Of a stretch of 64,000 bases of DNA, positions 4,396-63,990 are shown in pieces (position 1 is the stretch's first letter; every line of letters begins with the position of its first letter). The DNA is taken from assembly GCA_964403165.1 (NCBI GenBank), contig CAYOFL010000002.1, positions 5,139 to 69,138 on the forward strand, read 5' to 3'. This DNA is from an uncultured Ignavibacteria bacterium (GTDB lineage: Bacteria; Zixibacteria; MSB-5A5; SM1-73). The translations under genes were made by a program, and so were the position numbers. The notes under the pieces were generated by a model, which was given only the letters and a program-made list of their open reading frames with translations, searched no databases and was not told the origin of the DNA.

Positions 4396-4938
4396 TCATG
4401 ATGTCGTCGAACTTTTGTCCTGCATCTTAGGCATAAAAGTCAAGGTCAGAATTCGACCCTCCATTTTGGGTCTGGGACCTGGTTCTCCCACCTCAGAAAG
4501 GTCAACTTTCAGTTTATCTAAAATCTTTTGCCCGAACTCCATATGGGCTCTTTCCCGCCCCTTGAACACCACCAGAATCTTCACCTTGTTACCCTGGGTC
4601 AGAAACTCCCGGATATGCCTCATCTTGAACGTGTAGTCATGCTTCTCGGTTTTGGGTCTGAAGCGCATCTCCTTCATTTGTAAGAAACGCTGCTTTTTCT
4701 TGGCGTCTTTTGCTTTTTTAGTAAGTTCATATTTGTATTTTCCATAATCCATTATCTTACAAACGGGCGGTCTGGCTTGCGGAGAAACCTCCACCAGATC
4801 ATACCCTTTCTCTGCCGCTAACTTGATAGCGTCTCTGGTGGGCATGATTCCTATCTGTTCGCCACCCTCTCCGATAACCCTGACCTGGGAAAAACGAATT
4901 CTCCGATTAACCCTGATCTCCTTAGGTCTTATTGGAAT
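4396..4938 (-). CDS. infC: translation initiation factor IF-3, with a non-canonical ATT start
   Basis: The ORF-track Met (4845) truncates the protein. The frame stays open back to a TGA at 4939-4941 and reads IPIRPKEIRVNRRIRFSQVRVIGEGGEQIGIM..., a typical IF-3 N-terminus. ATT at 4938-4936 follows GGAGGTG. Confidence 0.85.
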   Translation of the reverse strand: MPIRPKEIRVNRRIRFSQVRVIGEGGEQIGIMPTRDAIKLAAEKGYDLVEVSPQARPPVCKIMDYGKYKYELTKKAKDAKKKQRFLQMKEMRFRPKTEKHDYTFKMRHIREFLTQGNKVKILVVFKGRERAHMEFGQKILDKLKVDLSEVGEPGPRPKMEGRILTLTFMPKMQDKSSTTS

Positions 4939-5055: not shown

Positions 5056-6993
5056 CTAGAAAGGTATGGGTTCTACAGCTTTATTCTTTACCTCCTCTTT
5101 CAACTTCTGGATGGTCTTATCTAAGTCGAACCGACCCAAATCTCCTCTTTTGTGTCTTCTTACTGAAACGTTTTTTTCCTGAACCTCCTTTTTGCCCACA
5201 ATAAACATATACGGTATTTTTTCCTTTTCTGCCTCTCTTATTTTATAGTTTATCTTTTCGTTTCTATCGTCCAACTCCACCCGAAAGCCTTCTTCTTTTA
5301 GCCTACCTTCTATTTCGGCAGAATACGAATTTTGCTCGTCGGTGATGGGCATCACCCTAACCTGCACTGGAGAAAGCCATAAGGGGAATGCCCCCCCGTA
5401 ATGCTCAATTAGCACTCCAAAGAATCGCTCCAGCGACCCCAACAAAGCCCGATGAATCATGATGGGTCGATGAAAGTTCCCATCTGAATCCACAAAGGTT
5501 AGATCAAATCTCTCCGGGATATTGAAATCAAATTGTATGGTGGTGCATTGATGTGATCTTCCCATCACATCTTCGATTTTCAAATCGATTTTGGGACCAT
5601 AGAAGGCACCACCCCCTTCATCCACTTCGAACTTTAGATTTTGCTTTTCCAAAGCCCTTCTCAGAGCATCTTGTGCTTTTTCCCAGTTTTGTTCTTCTCC
5701 GATGGATTTCTCCGGTTGGGTGGACAAGAATATCTGATATTTCTCAAAGCCCAGGGTTTTCAGCATGGAGGTTGAGAAATCTAAAAGTTTGATGACCTCC
5801 TCCTCCAGTTGCTCCGGCTTGCAGAATATATGAGCATCGTCCATGGTAAAACCCCTAACCCGAAATAGTCCCTGTAACACGCCGGATCGCTCATACCGAT
5901 AGCACGCACCCAACTCAGCCAGTTTAAGGGGTAGGTCTCTATAACTTCTGAGCTTGGATTTATAGATTAAGATGTGAAAGGGACAATTCATAGGCTTTAG
6001 CTGGTATTCCTCATCCTCCACCCGCATGGTTGAATACATGTTCTCCTGATAAAATCCGGTGTGCCCACTTTTCTCCCACAGATGCAGTCGAGCAATGTGA
6101 GGAGTGTAGATCAACTGATAACCATGCTTCTGATGTTCCTCCACCCAGTAGTCCTCGATGATCTTCCGAATCTGTGCTCCTTTGGGATGCCACAATACCA
6201 AGCCGGGTCCCACCTCATCCGAAATCGAAAAAAGCTCCAACTCCTTTCCCACCACTCGATGGTCTCTTCGTTTCATCTCCTCGATTCTTTTTAAGAATTG
6301 GTTTAGTTCTTCTTTTGTGGGGAAGGAGATACCGTATATCCGCTGAAGCATAGGATTTTTCTCAGAGCCTCTCCAATACGCTCCAGCCACACTTAAAAGC
6401 TTAAAGCTTTTGATCACCCCGGTGGAGGGAACATGTGGTCCCCGACAAAGATCCACAAAATCATCATGCTCATACAAAACCACTTTGTCCTCATCTAGCT
6501 CGGAAAGTATCTCTAATTTATAATTCTCCCCCTTTTGTCTAAAAATCTGCTCAGCTTCCGATTTGCTAAGTTCTTTCCTCTTGAAAGAATGATTTTCCTT
6601 CACGATTTCTTTCATTCTTTTTTCAATTCGTGCCAAGTCTTCAGGTTCGAATGGCTTCTGCGTATCAAAGTCGTAGTAGAATCCATCCTTGATCGGAGGT
6701 CCGATGGCTAATTTCACCCCAGGAAAAAGCTCCTGCACTGCCTGAGCCATGACATGTGAAGTGCTGTGCCAGAAGACCCCTTTCCCCTCTTCAGAGTCAA
6801 AGGTGATTATCTTGATATCTGAATCCTTTTGCACCTTTTCAGACAAATCCGCCACACTGCCATTTAGAAATGCGGCAAGTGCATCCTTAGCCAAAGATGA
6901 GTTGAAATCCCGCAATATCTGAGAGATCGTCATCCCAACTGGATATTTCTTTTTTGATCCGTCAGGTAGAACCACCGATACTTCATCTGCCAT
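5056..6993 (-). CDS. thrS: threonine--tRNA ligase
   Basis: TGS N-terminus, editing domain, class II core and anticodon-binding domain. I prefer the ATG at 6993 (MADEV...) because AAGGAG lies 6 nt upstream; the track start at 7017 is a TTG. Confidence 0.93.
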   Translation of the reverse strand: MADEVSVVLPDGSKKKYPVGMTISQILRDFNSSLAKDALAAFLNGSVADLSEKVQKDSDIKIITFDSEEGKGVFWHSTSHVMAQAVQELFPGVKLAIGPPIKDGFYYDFDTQKPFEPEDLARIEKRMKEIVKENHSFKRKELSKSEAEQIFRQKGENYKLEILSELDEDKVVLYEHDDFVDLCRGPHVPSTGVIKSFKLLSVAGAYWRGSEKNPMLQRIYGISFPTKEELNQFLKRIEEMKRRDHRVVGKELELFSISDEVGPGLVLWHPKGAQIRKIIEDYWVEEHQKHGYQLIYTPHIARLHLWEKSGHTGFYQENMYSTMRVEDEEYQLKPMNCPFHILIYKSKLRSYRDLPLKLAELGACYRYERSGVLQGLFRVRGFTMDDAHIFCKPEQLEEEVIKLLDFSTSMLKTLGFEKYQIFLSTQPEKSIGEEQNWEKAQDALRRALEKQNLKFEVDEGGGAFYGPKIDLKIEDVMGRSHQCTTIQFDFNIPERFDLTFVDSDGNFHRPIMIHRALLGSLERFFGVLIEHYGGAFPLWLSPVQVRVMPITDEQNSYSAEIEGRLKEEGFRVELDDRNEKINYKIREAEKEKIPYMFIVGKKEVQEKNVSVRRHKRGDLGRFDLDKTIQKLKEEVKNKAVEPIPF

Positions 6994-7130: not shown

Positions 7131-7333
7131 CAACTTAACCTTTTAGATTCTCATCGCAACTAACCCCATTACCTAATTAGTTGGCTCTTTCAATAGTCCC
7201 TTTAGCTTGACCTGTTTTATCCTGTGTATCCTGCAGGAAAACTCTGTTCCGCAGAATTCCCTGCATGTTGCTATAAAAAATTACCCCATACCTTTTGGGG
7301 TGCGGCTCTCCTCTGTGCTTGACCATCAACCGA

Positions 7334-7389
7334 TCACTGTTGACTGTATACTGTATACTGTATACTGCTTACTGTTTACTGCTTACTGT
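7334..7389. repeat. Heptanucleotide tandem repeat, 8 units (NNACTGY)
   Basis: Units read tcactgt tgactgt atactgt atactgt atactgc ttactgt ttactgc ttactgt. Confidence 0.9.
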
Positions 7390-7392
7390 TTC

Positions 7393-7459
7393 TGGTGGGC
7401 GATACTGGAATCGAACCAGTGACCCTCCCCCGCCTATGGCGGGGGATACTCTAACCAAC
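7393..7459 (-). pseudogene. tRNA-Val remnant (3' two-thirds, anticodon arm replaced)
   Basis: 7393-7425 is identical to the acceptor-3'/T-arm of the tRNA at 7502-7578, and 7447-7459 matches its D-arm. The anticodon arm is replaced by cccccgcc-tatg-gcggggg, and there is no 5' acceptor strand. Confidence 0.75.
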
Positions 7460-7501
7460 AAAAGGTTTAGAGCTTGATCCCAGTATAACTGCCCTGTTAA
7501 A

Positions 7502-7578
7502 TGGTGGGCGATACTGGAATCGAACCAGTGACCCCTTGCATGTCAAGCAAGTACTCTAACCAACTGAGCTAATCGCCC
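7502..7578 (-). tRNA. tRNA-Val (anticodon GAC), CCA encoded
   Basis: The reverse complement is GGGCGATTAGCTCAGTTGGTTAGAGTACTTGCTTGACATGCAAGGGGTCACTGGTTCGATTCCAGTATCGCCCACCA. It folds as a 77-nt cloverleaf with anticodon loop TTGACAT. Confidence 0.93.
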
Positions 7579-7881
7579 AACAAAAAAATCAAGAGTTTAC
7601 GATTGAAGTCTCTTTGTGTTCTTTAACCTAAGCTTTTGATTTGTAATCTCAAGCCAAATCTAATATATTTCTTTACGAATCTTTTGTCAAGATTTTATTA
7701 CGAGGGCTTTAGAAAAAGTCAAATTTGAATTAGCAAATCTGGAGTGCCTGCCTTTAGAGCTTGCCTTCCCATGACTTCTGCAGATTATCGCTATAAAAAC
7801 ATAAATCTACGTTTTTTCAATAAGATAGAGTTTCAGTATCTTTTGGTTCAGATAAAATCCTTAACAGTATGCTGATTACTA

Positions 7882-8169
7882 TTAGATTCCGAACAAATCC
7901 ATAAGTCTATCTGCGATCTTTTTGTAAACCTCCCGGCTATCGTAGTCTCCGTTTTGTTTTTTCTTTTTTGCCTCTTCTACCTTTTCTTTTCGAATTGCTG
8001 GTGAATCACCAGAAAGAACAGCTTTCCTCTTTGAGATACGATTGTCTCCTTGACATTTTGATTGTTCTAAGATGCGATCTATCTTCTTCCCGTTCTTTTT
8101 CTTAAAGGACGATGAATCAGGATTTTTCTTTTTATTCTCAAATTCTTCTTTTTCACTGAAGGATAACAT
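7882..8169 (-). CDS. flgM: anti-sigma-28 factor FlgM-like protein
   Basis: 95 aa, K/E-rich and probably disordered. The C-terminus IRKEKVEEAKKKKQNGDYDSREVYKKIADRLMDLF resembles the FlgM sigma-28-binding helix region. fliA is also in this window. Confidence 0.6.
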   Translation of the reverse strand: MLSFSEKEEFENKKKNPDSSSFKKKNGKKIDRILEQSKCQGDNRISKRKAVLSGDSPAIRKEKVEEAKKKKQNGDYDSREVYKKIADRLMDLFGI

Positions 8170-61844: not shown

Positions 61845-61942
61845 GTTGTGTCAGGACCTGAGTCCTGACACCTTTTAAAGCGTCAGTCACCAGGATTCCC
61901 CGTACGGGGAAGAGAAAAGCTCCTGACGCAACCATTAATGTT
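61845..61942 (-). repeat. ~97-nt structured repeat element, copy B
   Basis: Reverse complement of copy A (21046-21142), with stem-preserving substitutions. Confidence 0.9.
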
Positions 61943-62013
61943 CGGGATCGAAGTCGGCGGCGGCGCACCTCTGTTTGCCCTGAAGGCAATTAGGGGGTGC
62001 GTCGTTTTTTTTC

Positions 62014-62042
62014 TTGATTTTTGGAAGGAAATTGCATAGTAT
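62014..62042 (+). promoter_or_regulatory. Putative sigma-70-type promoter of asnA
   Basis: TTGATT, 17 nt, TAGTAT, preceded by a hairpin plus T8 (61966-62012). Confidence 0.45.
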
Positions 62043-62147
62043 ATAAGGCTCGGAAGAGCGAAAAAGATAACAGGAGATGACTCTCCTGGTTAAGCAGTCG
62101 AGCAGACAGAAATTTACGCTTATGTTAGTGAAAAGGAGGTAAACACA

Positions 62148-62837
62148 ATGGCAACCGTAGACAAGAAGGCAGACTTAGCTGGACCCGGTATCGGTGACTA
62201 TAACCAGCTGGAAAAAATCCTGCCACAGGACTACAGCTCTCTTTTAACCCCGAAGGAAACGCAGAAGGCAATCACTTCTGCGAAAAACTACATCGAGGAG
62301 GGTCTGTGCAAGGAGCTCAATCTGATGCGGGTTGAGGTTCCCCTGATCGTAGACGTTGAGAGTGGTGTAAACGATATGTTGGACCGGGATGGCTCACGCA
62401 CCCCCATCGGGTTCCATATTTCAAACGACTATGACAAGCACCCGGTCGATGCCCAGATAGTGCAGGCCGCAACCAAGTGGAAGCGTGTTGCGCTGAAGCA
62501 GTTCGGCATGGAGGTGGGGGAGGGCCTATACACCGACATGCGCGCCGTGCGCAAGGACTACTTCTTAGACCACGATCACAGCGCATACGTGGACCAGTGG
62601 GACTGGGAACTGGTGATAACCGAAGAGCAACGCAACCTGCAGTTCCTAACCGAAGTGATAGAGAAGATCTGGAAGGTCATCAAGGGAGCCGAGACCCATG
62701 TTCAGCAACTCTTTCCCCAGTTGAAAACGGACAAATATCCCGACCTGCCCGAGAAGCTCACATTCATACATGCCGAAGAAATCCTTGATAAGTACCCCGA
62801 CCTGCCGCGCAAGCAGCGTGAGACGGCGATTGTGAAG
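62148..62837 (+). pseudogene. asnA: aspartate--ammonia ligase (AsnA), 5' fragment
   Basis: VDQWDWE, LYTDMRAVRKD and YPDLPRKQRETAIVK align with AsnA up to the residue before the conserved (D/E)xxAhF.hGhG segment. The frame then runs into inserted DNA and stops after 2 codons. Confidence 0.85.
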
Positions 62838-63424
62838 TTAAACTAAATTTGAGCTGGTTTAACGACAAAGCATTTATTAATATTAACTTATAACTGAAAA
62901 ATAATGACAATCAAAATCTTTGTCACGGGTGGGACTTTCGATAAAGAGTACAATGAACTCGAAGGTGAACTCTTTTTCAAGGACACTCACCTACCTGAAA
63001 TGCTAAAATTGGGTCGTTGTAAACTAGAAATTGACATCAGAACTCTAATGATGATTGATAGTTTAGATATGACTGACGCTGATAGAAAAATTATTCTTGA
63101 AAACTGCCGAAGAACAAAGGAAGATAAAATACTGATTACCCACGGCACTGATACGATGGTAGAAACTGCCAAAGTTCTCGCAAATTCCATAAACGATAAA
63201 ACAATAATTTTAACCGGTGCAATGATACCATACAAGTTTGGTAGTTCTGATGGATTATTCAATTTAGGAAGTTCTTTGGCATTTGTCCAAACTTTACCGC
63301 ATGGAGTTTATATTTCTATGAATGGCAAATATTTTCACTGGAATAATGTTAGAAAAAACAAACAGACAGGTGAGTTTGAAGAAATAAAGTAAACGTTTCG
63401 CAAAACTTATTGTATTCCTAAACG
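62838..63424 (+). other. 587-bp low-GC insertion splitting asnA
   Basis: The flanks join to ...ATT GTG AAG | GAA GCC GTC... (IVK|EAVAIF), restoring a continuous AsnA frame. GC falls from about 55% to about 35% by eye. I see no TIRs or clear target-site duplication. Confidence 0.8.
62904..63392 (+). CDS. short L-asparaginase-like protein (N-terminal catalytic domain only)
   Basis: 162 aa with IFVTGGTFDKE (TGGT motif) and LITHGTDTMVETA (HGTDT motif). No SD upstream, unlike host genes. Confidence 0.75.
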   Translation: MTIKIFVTGGTFDKEYNELEGELFFKDTHLPEMLKLGRCKLEIDIRTLMMIDSLDMTDADRKIILENCRRTKEDKILITHGTDTMVETAKVLANSINDKTIILTGAMIPYKFGSSDGLFNLGSSLAFVQTLPHGVYISMNGKYFHWNNVRKNKQTGEFEEIK

Positions 63425-63871
63425 GAAGCCGTCGCGATCTTCATCTATGGGGTCGGCTGGATCCTCAAGGACGGTTACCCGCACGAAATGAGAGCGGCAG
63501 ACTACGACGACTGGGTCACGGAGACAAAGTCTAAAGACGGCAGACCCATGCATGGTCTCAATGGTGATATTCTTGTCTGGAACCCGGTGACAAAGCGCCG
63601 CCACGAGCTGACCTCCATGGGTATTCGGGTTAACGCTGACACGCTCAAGAAACAGTTGGAGATGACCGGACAGCTTGATTTCCTCAAGTTGCCATACCAC
63701 CAGGCAATCATAAACAACCAGATACCCTTGAGCATTGGTGGTGGCATCGGGCAGTCCCGCACTTACATGACCCTGCTCAAAAAGGCGCACCTTGGAGAGT
63801 GCAGTGTCACCGTATGGCCAAAGATACTCAAGGACATGTGTAGGGAGAAGAACATTCATATCTTAGAGTAA
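63425..63871 (+). pseudogene. asnA: aspartate--ammonia ligase (AsnA), 3' fragment
   Basis: The in-frame reading EAVAIFIYGVGWILKDGYPHEMRAADYDDW...LNGDILVWNP...SMGIRV...GGGIGQSR matches the AsnA C-terminal half. Confidence 0.85.
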
Positions 63872-63953
63872 AGGGAGGTAACGTCAACACTACCCTTCAC
63901 GCATCAATTTAACGTGTAGAAAAACGAGTCACCACCTTTTTCAGTAATCATGG

Positions 63954-63990
63954 CCAGCACCTAACTTAAGTTAGGTGCTGGTTTTTTTCT
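63954..63990 (+). terminator. 28-bp palindrome (family copy 5) followed by a T-run, acting as a terminator
   Basis: ccagcacctaacttaagttaggtgctgg + ttttttt. Confidence 0.75.

Follow-up and report, generated by a model that had tools for sequence, protein, structure and literature searches.

A predicted short-chain asparaginase gene splits asnA at the same site in diverged uncultured bacteria

Homing endonuclease genes, mobile group I introns and inteins have a homing cycle, and free-standing endonuclease genes split phage genes. The minimal mobile elements of Neisseria (Saunders & Snyder 2002; Snyder et al. 2007; summarised in PMC3787668) are gene-sized inserts without mobility genes: they are defined by specific conserved flanks, are present or absent among close relatives and are identical across distant genomes whose surroundings differ, and their spread has been attributed to homologous recombination in the flanks. 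Here we analyse a 64,000-nucleotide stretch of DNA (the window; positions 5,139 to 69,138 of the forward strand of contig CAYOFL010000002.1, assembly GCA_964403165.1) from an uncultured Ignavibacteria bacterium placed by GTDB in the Zixibacteria. In it, asnA, the gene for asparagine synthetase A, is split by a 587-bp insert with a single open reading frame (ORF) of 162 codons, ORF162, which is predicted to encode an asparaginase.

By sequence, ORF162 belongs to the short-chain L-asparaginases (scASNases), cytoplasmic enzymes of 160–185 aa with a millimolar Km, of which RrA from Rhodospirillum rubrum is the prototype; asparaginase activity has been demonstrated within the family, which occurs in about 7% of bacterial species and for which its authors inferred frequent horizontal gene transfer (PMC10949315). 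We find the same insert at the same asnA spot in several diverged lineages, and it is far younger than both the asnA sequences around it and its hosts. It is probable, although well short of certain, that a single illegitimate insertion gave rise to a knock-in/knock-out allele of asnA, which then spread by homologous recombination through conserved asnA blocks.

A low-GC insert interrupts asnA

Deletion of the insert in silico fuses the two parts of asnA (Table 1), of 690 and 447 nt, in frame. The resulting 378-aa protein passes the NCBIfam equivalog model TIGR00669 (308.3 bits against a cutoff of 292.8; model positions 8–324 of 330) and also matches the Pfam family AsnA (PF03590). Its length is exactly that of the wild type: intact relatives, found in several named Zixibacteria among others, have 376–378 aa and are 90–94% identical to it. 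An earlier note on this DNA, made from the letters of the window, had described asnA as split by an asparaginase gene, and these results bear it out. No uninterrupted frame covers both halves including the C-terminal GGGIGQSR, and the locus is an interrupted gene.

The insert carries stop codons in the asnA frame. A strong Shine–Dalgarno (SD) motif precedes the asnA start at 62148; from there the frame reads into the AT-rich insert and ends at TAA 62844–62846, two codons past the left junction, giving a 232-aa product (230 residues followed by Leu-Asn). On the other side, an in-frame stop at 63419–63421 lies two codons 5′ of the right junction and the earliest start codon in the 3′ part is ATG 63488 (M252), without an SD motif, so that codons 231–251 are untranslatable. 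The early stop, the lack of a 3′ start before M252 and the decay of asnA in relatives (below) agree with the earlier note's view that asnA has been knocked out by a gene for the reverse reaction; judged from the sequence, AsnA activity has probably been lost.

The insert has 33.0% GC, against 53.5% and 52.1% for the 5′ and 3′ parts of asnA and a window mean of 43.8%; GC at third codon positions (GC3) is 32% in ORF162 versus 70% in asnA, and the shift is abrupt at both junctions. The large difference in GC had been noted correctly. So had the raised GC of asnA relative to its surroundings, but the suggestion of foreign DNA nested in foreign DNA finds no support: GC is equally raised in relatives with an intact asnA (0.54 against about 0.46) and is therefore an old property of the gene. 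Likewise, ORF162 does lack an SD motif, but the statement that such motifs are typical of host genes is weak, as a crude survey found them at only 17 of 34 window ORFs.

On the minus strand, a 150-aa ORF (63407–63859) lies antisense to the asnA 3′ part and was chosen by gene callers, in place of the asnA fragment, on L001 and L175 (loci are denoted by L numbers); most likely it is artefactual, a by-product of the high GC3 of asnA. An Rfam scan of the window gave a single match at the gathering threshold, a tRNA gene at 7505–7578 (minus strand).

One junction shared by diverged alleles

The same junction, with identical proteins, is present on contig Ga0315538_1000166 of JGI 3300031864 and in the Logan assembly of SRR9700529, and at least six more samples, from JGI, NCBI, ENA and Logan data, contain junctions homologous to it. 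Uninterrupted alleles in relatives, which the earlier note had proposed to look for, also exist. In L164 (GCA_030633625.1), an intact asnA occupies the syntenic locus and represents the empty site; the gene order common to L164 and the window is RibD_C, M23 peptidase, FG-GAP, LiaF-TM, asnA, ORFs of 200 and 95 aa and an amino-acid permease. Of the 120 asnA clusters nearest to the N-terminal fragment of the window, those with split-type lengths number only about six; an intact asnA is thus the rule, and AsnA homologues are not naturally discontinuous at this position. The search for other insertion sites, also proposed in the earlier note, shows the insert at the same spot in further asnA genes (Table 1). 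What had been taken for a one-off event is thus a recurrent allele that appears to move horizontally between asnA genes.

Both intact and window alleles have 18 nt between GTG and TTCATC, 7 of which differ: the intact allele reads GTG CAG GAA TAT CCC GCC GTC TTC, and the window reads GTG AAG, then the insert, then GAA GCC GTC GCG ATC TTC. The substitutions of this scar (Q230K, Y232A, P233V and V235I, with T243I close by) affect positions that are otherwise nearly invariant. The join is therefore seamless, as had been claimed, in the sense that length is preserved, but not in sequence. Every allele with a preserved left junction has GAAG/TTAAAC (the slash marks the junction) together with the Lys230 scar, and every allele with a preserved right junction has GGAAGCCGTCGCG; the latter scar and GAAGTTAAACTAAATTTGAG could serve as sequence tags for recognising split alleles.

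The left junction and scar are identical in the window, L169, L171, L173 and L175, and the asnA-borne copies of ORF162, L089 excepted, group as one clade in a neighbour-joining tree. The junctions therefore have a single origin. Two blocks beside the site, of 14 and 24 nt, are invariant among the alleles compared, the 24-nt block being the longest invariant nucleotide block of the entire asnA gene; both are candidate recombination anchors. The divergent copy L089 has a longer tail that is homologous to the tail of the insert; each of the two looks like the target segment GCGATTGTGCAGGAA in a second, degenerate copy. Duplication of 12–15 bp of the target in the founding event is possible, although uncertain.

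In L174 (4001–4686, on a contig labelled Deltaproteobacteria), an 85% identical asnA ends in ...GAGATCGTTAAAAA (IVK), exactly at the junction position, and the contig stops there. It could be one more split allele, more distant than the others, with an assembly that broke off at the insert.

The insert is younger than its flanks

All 98 non-coding bases of the insert (66-nt leader and 32-nt tail) are identical among the window, L171, L169 and L175. Over the whole insert, the window differs from L175 at 4 of 587 nt, compared with 114 of 1131 in the asnA flanks (Fisher p = 6e-17); the corresponding figures are 10/587 and 113/1137 for L171 (p = 5e-12) and 33/587 and 152/1137 for L169 (p = 4e-7). 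Synonymous divergence (dS) gives the same ranking. Among the window, L171 and L169, dS is 0.06, 0.26 and 0.26 in ORF162, 0.40–0.47 in the N part of asnA and 0.47–1.21 in its distal C part, and between the window and L173 it is 0.29 in ORF162 and 1.2 in asnA, for overall ranges of 0.06–0.31 versus 0.40–1.29. The neighbouring host genes (FG-GAP and LiaF-TM) are only 80–88% identical between the hosts of split alleles. The insert is thus far younger than the asnA flanks and the hosts.

Between split alleles, dN/dS (omega) of the asnA flanks is 0.06–0.12, and the flanks therefore diverged while functional. They are also polyphyletic. The nearest intact allele (P numbers) is P0121 for the N part of the window, P0124/P0128 for that of L169, P0127 for that of L171 and P0134 for the C part of L084. 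Shared tracts reach at most about 60 nt on each side, and beyond them split alleles are no more alike than unrelated alleles. The inserts are mosaic among themselves, L084 for example matching L171 over the first 120 nt, L169 over nt 180–360 and the window over the last 120 nt.

Table 1 Features of the split asnA locus in the window, and the split alleles found at other loci
Feature	Coordinates (strand)	Description
Putative asnA promoter and leader	62014..62147 (+)	TTGATT 62014-62019, 17-nt spacer, TAGTAT 62037-62042, then about 100-nt leader
asnA 5′ part	62148..62837 (+)	Codons 1-230; 96% identical to intact P0121 over this part
Left invariant block	62802..62815 (+)	14 nt, invariant in every intact and split allele compared; lies 23-36 nt to the left of the junction
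Left scar	62835..62837 (+)	AAG (Lys) replacing CAG (Gln230) of intact alleles; common to all split alleles
Insert	62838..63424 (+)	587 bp, 33% GC, no mobility gene
Insert leader	62838..62903 (+)	66 nt; provides in-frame stop for asnA 5′ part; no SD motif
ORF162	62904..63392 (+)	162 aa; sole gene of insert
Insert tail	63393..63424 (+)	32 nt; missing by deletion in L173, L084 and L004
asnA 3′ part	63425..63871 (+)	Codons 231-378 and stop (63869-63871); contains GGGIGQSR motif; frame open
Right scar	63425..63439 (+)	GAA GCC GTC GCG ATC replacing intact GAA TAT CCC GCC GTC
Right invariant block	63438..63461 (+)	24 nt, TCTTCATCTATGGGGTCGGCTGGA, identical across all alleles compared; begins 13 nt right of junction
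asnA terminator	63952..63983 (+)	Intrinsic terminator of asnA unit
Intact (empty) asnA target site		GTGCAGGAATATCCCGCCGTCTTC
L175-L177 (three samples)		Complete structure, both asnA halves open, same insert
L171/L172 (and five similar places)		Complete structure, both asnA halves open, same insert
L169/L170 (NCBI Zixibacteria metagenome-assembled genome and Logan run)		Complete structure, both asnA halves open, same insert
L173, L084		Common deletion, from ORF162 stop into asnA codon ~264
L004		asnA reduced to short N-terminal remnant and last 96 codons
L089 (64% GC host)		asnA N-terminal remnant, partly ameliorated ORF162, asnA from about codon 230

Decay of asnA and retention of ORF162

In the older copies (L173/L084, L004 and L089), asnA decays and ORF162 stays intact, at an omega of 0.06–0.15; across all comparisons ORF162 omega is 0.06–0.24, indicating purifying selection. 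At positions invariant in 135 intact AsnA proteins, L169 has three changes, L171 one and the window none. Because both asnA halves of the window are undamaged, with no change at an invariant position, the arrival of the allele there is taken to be very recent.

Relaxed selection on the window asnA was considered and rejected: a three-taxon count of lineage-specific amino-acid changes (17 versus 3) hinted at it, but the test at invariant positions gave 0. Part of the 17-versus-3 signal is the scar, and another part may come from mosaic flanks; the window allele is best treated as essentially undamaged.

Two further observations concern the surroundings of decayed and complete copies. In L004, a tandem repeat of about 22 nt (GGGATGTCCCTnTCTTTCnTACA-like; 4500–4590) replaces the decayed middle of asnA, 3′ of ORF162. 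Relative to the window, L171 has a Zeta_toxin/AAA_33 gene (2054–2839) between LiaF-TM and asnA and a HEPN_AbiU2 gene (7246–8010) downstream. The surroundings of asnA look variable and associated with defence.

The asparaginase gene and its relatives

The earlier note had recognised the asparaginase motifs TGGT and HGTDT in the 162-aa ORF; both are present, and ORF162 matches PF00710 (asparaginase N-terminal domain), and no other Pfam family, over residues 3–154. Its best match in the PDB is 8UOO (E = 7e-35; residues 3–161 against 21–181), the next best being 1WLS at 1.5e-14, and it aligns end to end with the 185-residue chains 8UOO–8UPC, which are RrA; it is closer to RrA than to typical class 1 asparaginases. 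With 162 aa and the N-terminal domain only, it has the size of a scASNase, and the DNA 3′ of it is asnA and encodes no C-terminal asparaginase domain. The RrA active-site residues, listed in RrA numbering as in PMC10949315, are Thr16, Lys19, Tyr21, Asp57, Ser58, Thr87, Asp88 and Lys158, which correspond to T11, K14, Y16, D52, S53, T82, D83 and K151 of ORF162. The single unconserved residue is Asn26, which in RrA complements the active site from another protomer (PMC10949315) and which aligns to Gly21. By these sequence criteria ORF162 is a short-chain L-asparaginase of the RrA family, and its product presumably hydrolyses L-Asn.

More than 594 GTDB species representatives encode a copy of ORF162 that is at least 70% identical at the amino-acid level, including bacteria of the candidate phyla radiation (CPR) and several archaeal lineages. 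scASNases at this level of identity span Bacteroidota, Acidobacteriota, CPR, Micrarchaeota, Methanofastidiosa and Thermococci. The scASNase family is far wider than reported, and its conservation is unusually strong for a small enzyme. In most homologues of ORF162 the GC content of the gene equals that of the host; they are therefore resident genes there. The subclade nearest to the window (at least 83% amino-acid identity) keeps 33–38% GC in hosts of 42–64% GC, and has therefore been mobile recently. Outside asnA, low-GC copies of this subclade lie between intact, unrelated genes, and the sequence they have in common is the ORF and 30–45 nt upstream only. A general linkage between scASNase genes and asnA was rejected on these grounds, being confined to the asnA-borne subclade.

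A further Zixibacteria contig is L011 (1163–2228 and 2253–2948), where a low-GC copy of ORF162 (0.39 versus 0.58 in the flanks) sits between a CoaBC-like gene and an isoaspartyl-peptidase/asparaginase_2-like ORF and adjoins an rve-type transposase fragment. L011 is a second, different route of this gene into Zixibacteria.

The insert encodes no mobility function

As the earlier note had stated, the window insert has no transposase, terminal inverted repeats or clear target duplication, which we confirmed by repeat and domain searches. No nuclease, integrase or transposase domain is encoded: ORF162 matches PF00710 only and has no PHROG match, and none of the homing-endonuclease families (LAGLIDADG, GIY-YIG, HNH, His-Cys box, PD-(D/E)XK) is represented. 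Neither a self-splicing RNA nor an in-frame intein was recognised, the insert having no Rfam match at the gathering threshold or at E ≤ 1 and containing stops in the asnA frame. It also lacks attC, with no imperfect inverted repeat in the 32-nt tail, and none of the loci has an integrase or a cassette array.

Several candidate identities were rejected accordingly. An intron, riboswitch or other RNA fails for want of an Rfam match, even at E ≤ 1. An integron cassette, despite TTAAAC after G at the insert start, fails for want of attC and integrase, and the term cassette, used in the earlier note, is unsupported in that sense. An insertion sequence or miniature inverted-repeat transposable element has no terminal inverted repeats, target duplication or transposase to support it, a degenerate 12–15-bp duplication being possible but not demonstrable. 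A hairpin at the left end (GTTAAAC...GTTTAAC) was dropped as a functional element, as it is not conserved in L173. Finally, an origin of ORF162 as a phage gene was rejected: it has no PHROG match, IMG/VR contigs contain neither the gene nor the junction, and its best phage or plasmid relative is 45.6% identical.

Expression of the locus

The putative asnA promoter (Table 1) is sigma-70-like, an assignment made from the sequence. Promoter and leader are conserved in five of six aligned loci, including the non-syntenic L166, and match no Rfam family. Because this promoter precedes asnA, the insert has no terminator and the asnA terminator follows, ORF162 is most likely co-transcribed with asnA. 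On a longer contig, an amino-acid permease is encoded three genes downstream of asnA. Exchanging an ATP-consuming asparagine synthetase for a cytoplasmic asparaginase of low affinity would make sense for a cell that imports Asn. Alternatively, the insert may persist in asnA simply because the conservation of asnA lets it spread. That selection couples the asparaginase to the gene it splits, as in the selected metabolic switch suggested in the earlier note, is plausible, if unproven.

Just 5′ of the promoter, a GC-rich hairpin with a T-run (61964–62012) overlaps a 33-aa ORF (61938–62039). The hairpin is conserved in L164, L166, L169 and L171, without a match to an Rfam family; it could be a terminator, an insulator or part of an asnA attenuator.

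Origin and spread of the split allele

We propose that a low-GC genome fragment inserted once, by illegitimate recombination, between asnA codons 230 and 231 in a sediment bacterium. The founding fragment would have consisted of the scASNase gene preceded by about 45 nt of its native upstream DNA, and the event would have left the junction scar behind. The asparaginase gene would thereby have come to lie inside the asnA transcription unit, and AsnA would have been cut after residue 230, losing its C-terminal third. Since then, the allele would have passed between lineages by homologous recombination following DNA uptake, with crossovers in the short, perfectly conserved asnA blocks beside the site; asnA would in effect be a portable pair of homology arms. 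Split alleles would also go on recombining with one another and, after arrival, asnA would be lost by deletion and the asparaginase gene kept by purifying selection. Homologous recombination is the simplest engine, because the insert encodes nothing but the asparaginase, and the mosaicism of the sequences points to it as the mechanism.

A number of observations weigh against this proposal. In the ORF162 tree, L089 does not group with the remaining asnA-borne copies. The window AsnA has no lesion at invariant positions, and the only grounds for its loss of function are the insertion and the missing 3′ start. We identified no recombination machinery or competence genes (the latter were not searched for), and searches of viral contigs, phages and plasmids for a transfer vehicle were all negative. 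Metagenome contigs may be strain mosaics, which would inflate the apparent mosaicism of the flanks. Finally, flank divergence of 10–20% should strongly depress passive homologous recombination, with anchors of only 14 and 24 nt, and a process assisted by double-strand breaks would explain the short tracts at least as well.

This last point leads to active homing, in which the empty asnA site would be broken by a nuclease acting in trans, or by an unrecognised activity of the insert, and repaired from a split allele. Homing would account for a single site being occupied in asnA alleles between which dS reaches about 1.2, for the very short co-converted tracts, for a donor scar that changes the sequence right at the site, as for cleavage immunity, and for a pattern of invasion followed by decay that resembles the homing cycle. 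We nevertheless regard it as unlikely. The only ORF is to all appearances a bona fide scASNase with all catalytic residues, 70–90% identical to resident copies in hundreds of genomes where it is unrelated to asnA; there is no nuclease domain, PHROG match or ribozyme, nor a candidate nuclease; and the hairpin at the left end is not conserved in L173. A bolder version, to which we give similarly little credence, makes the insert a nuclease-less homing gene. Long resident in asnA (dS up to about 1.4 between copies), it would have serially invaded intact alleles across species and perhaps phyla, helped either by a break-inducing activity at the site or by selection, as its product would make asnA redundant or harmful. 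If true, such a gene would combine a self-contained metabolic switch with intron-like propagation.

It is improbable that the split asnA still functions, either as a two-piece enzyme or through removal or bypass of the insert at the level of RNA or translation. In the window, L175 and L171 the two halves remain open and free of damage, flank omega between split alleles is about 0.1 and the joined length is exactly that of the wild type, all of which would fit a working gene. The low omega is, however, explained by recent transfer into functional alleles, the flanks being polyphyletic. Moreover, codons 231–251 cannot be translated, the searches gave no sign of an intron or ribozyme, the deletions in L173, L084 and L004 removed the tail and asnA codons and retained ORF162, and L169 has its three changes at invariant residues.

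A purely vertical pseudogene, that is, one old insertion inherited in a single lineage in which the insert evolved more slowly than asnA, is very improbable, although it agrees with the single origin of the junctions and with the roughly congruent ranking of ORF162 and asnA divergence (L084 < L004 < L089). Slow evolution does not explain non-coding insert sequence that is identical at 98 of 98 positions where asnA differs by 10–21% and host genes by 12–20%. A dead gene would be expected to have an omega near 1, against 0.06–0.12 in the flanks; the flanks group with different intact alleles, and a relative carries an intact allele at the syntenic locus (L164).

An integron cassette or a transposable element at a secondary site is scarcely credible: a start that looks like the core site GTTRRRY and a single promoter-poor ORF speak for it, and against it stand a tail too short for attC, the lack of integrase, cassette array, terminal inverted repeats and transposase, and the fact that copies at other sites have only the ORF and 30–45 nt upstream in common. 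An assembly chimera, raised in the earlier note and suggested by the abrupt GC change at both junctions, can be dismissed, as the junction is identical in three assemblies and recurs, in diverged alleles, in at least six more samples.

Comparison with known systems

If the spread by homologous recombination that we favour is correct, an ordinary metabolic gene can act like a site-specific mobile element across species by sitting in a gene conserved enough to provide homology arms. The loci then form a natural time series, from fresh invasion (the window) through partial deletion to remnants of asnA. The gain of an asparaginase and the loss of asparagine synthetase would be mechanistically coupled, which bears on the spread of auxotrophies and of nitrogen scavenging in sediment communities.

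Within the scASNases, ORF162 resembles RrA in its size, its restriction to the N-terminal domain, its full-length similarity, the retention of active-site residues and the lack of a signal peptide, and differs in having Gly21 where RrA has Asn26. The description of the family (PMC10949315) makes no mention of archaeal members, of the very high conservation of this subclade or of an insertion in asnA. As the range of the scASNases now extends to many uncultured phyla and to archaea, their physiological role merits attention.

With integron gene cassettes the insert shares a small, single-ORF, promoter-poor form and its occurrence in many hosts; unlike them, it has no attC, integrase or array, and its ends are not conserved at sites other than asnA. 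As with homing elements, one position in a highly conserved gene is filled in hosts that have diverged, tracts of co-conversion are short, the donor site has been changed and degeneration follows invasion. The asnA insert differs from them in having neither endonuclease nor ribozyme nor intein domains and in carrying an ordinary metabolic enzyme as its cargo; splicing does not restore the host gene, and it is the host gene that degenerates.

The split allele follows the logic of the minimal mobile elements of Neisseria. The insert has no mobility genes, its content is variable between conserved flanks (L164 is intact; the window, L171 and L175 are split), and the unit is the same where the flanks differ, recombination itself being suggested by mosaicism. 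The differences are that a single conserved housekeeping gene, in two halves, supplies both flanks here and is destroyed by each transfer; that the shared tracts are only tens of nucleotides long; that the hosts are uncultured, Zixibacteria-like sediment lineages; and that the cargo catalyses the reverse of the reaction of its target. The locus is more interesting than a single pseudogene and less unusual than a new mobility mechanism would be. Its insert belongs with the cassettes that spread by recombination without mobility genes, and is set apart by its place inside a conserved housekeeping gene and by a cargo that reverses the chemistry of its target.

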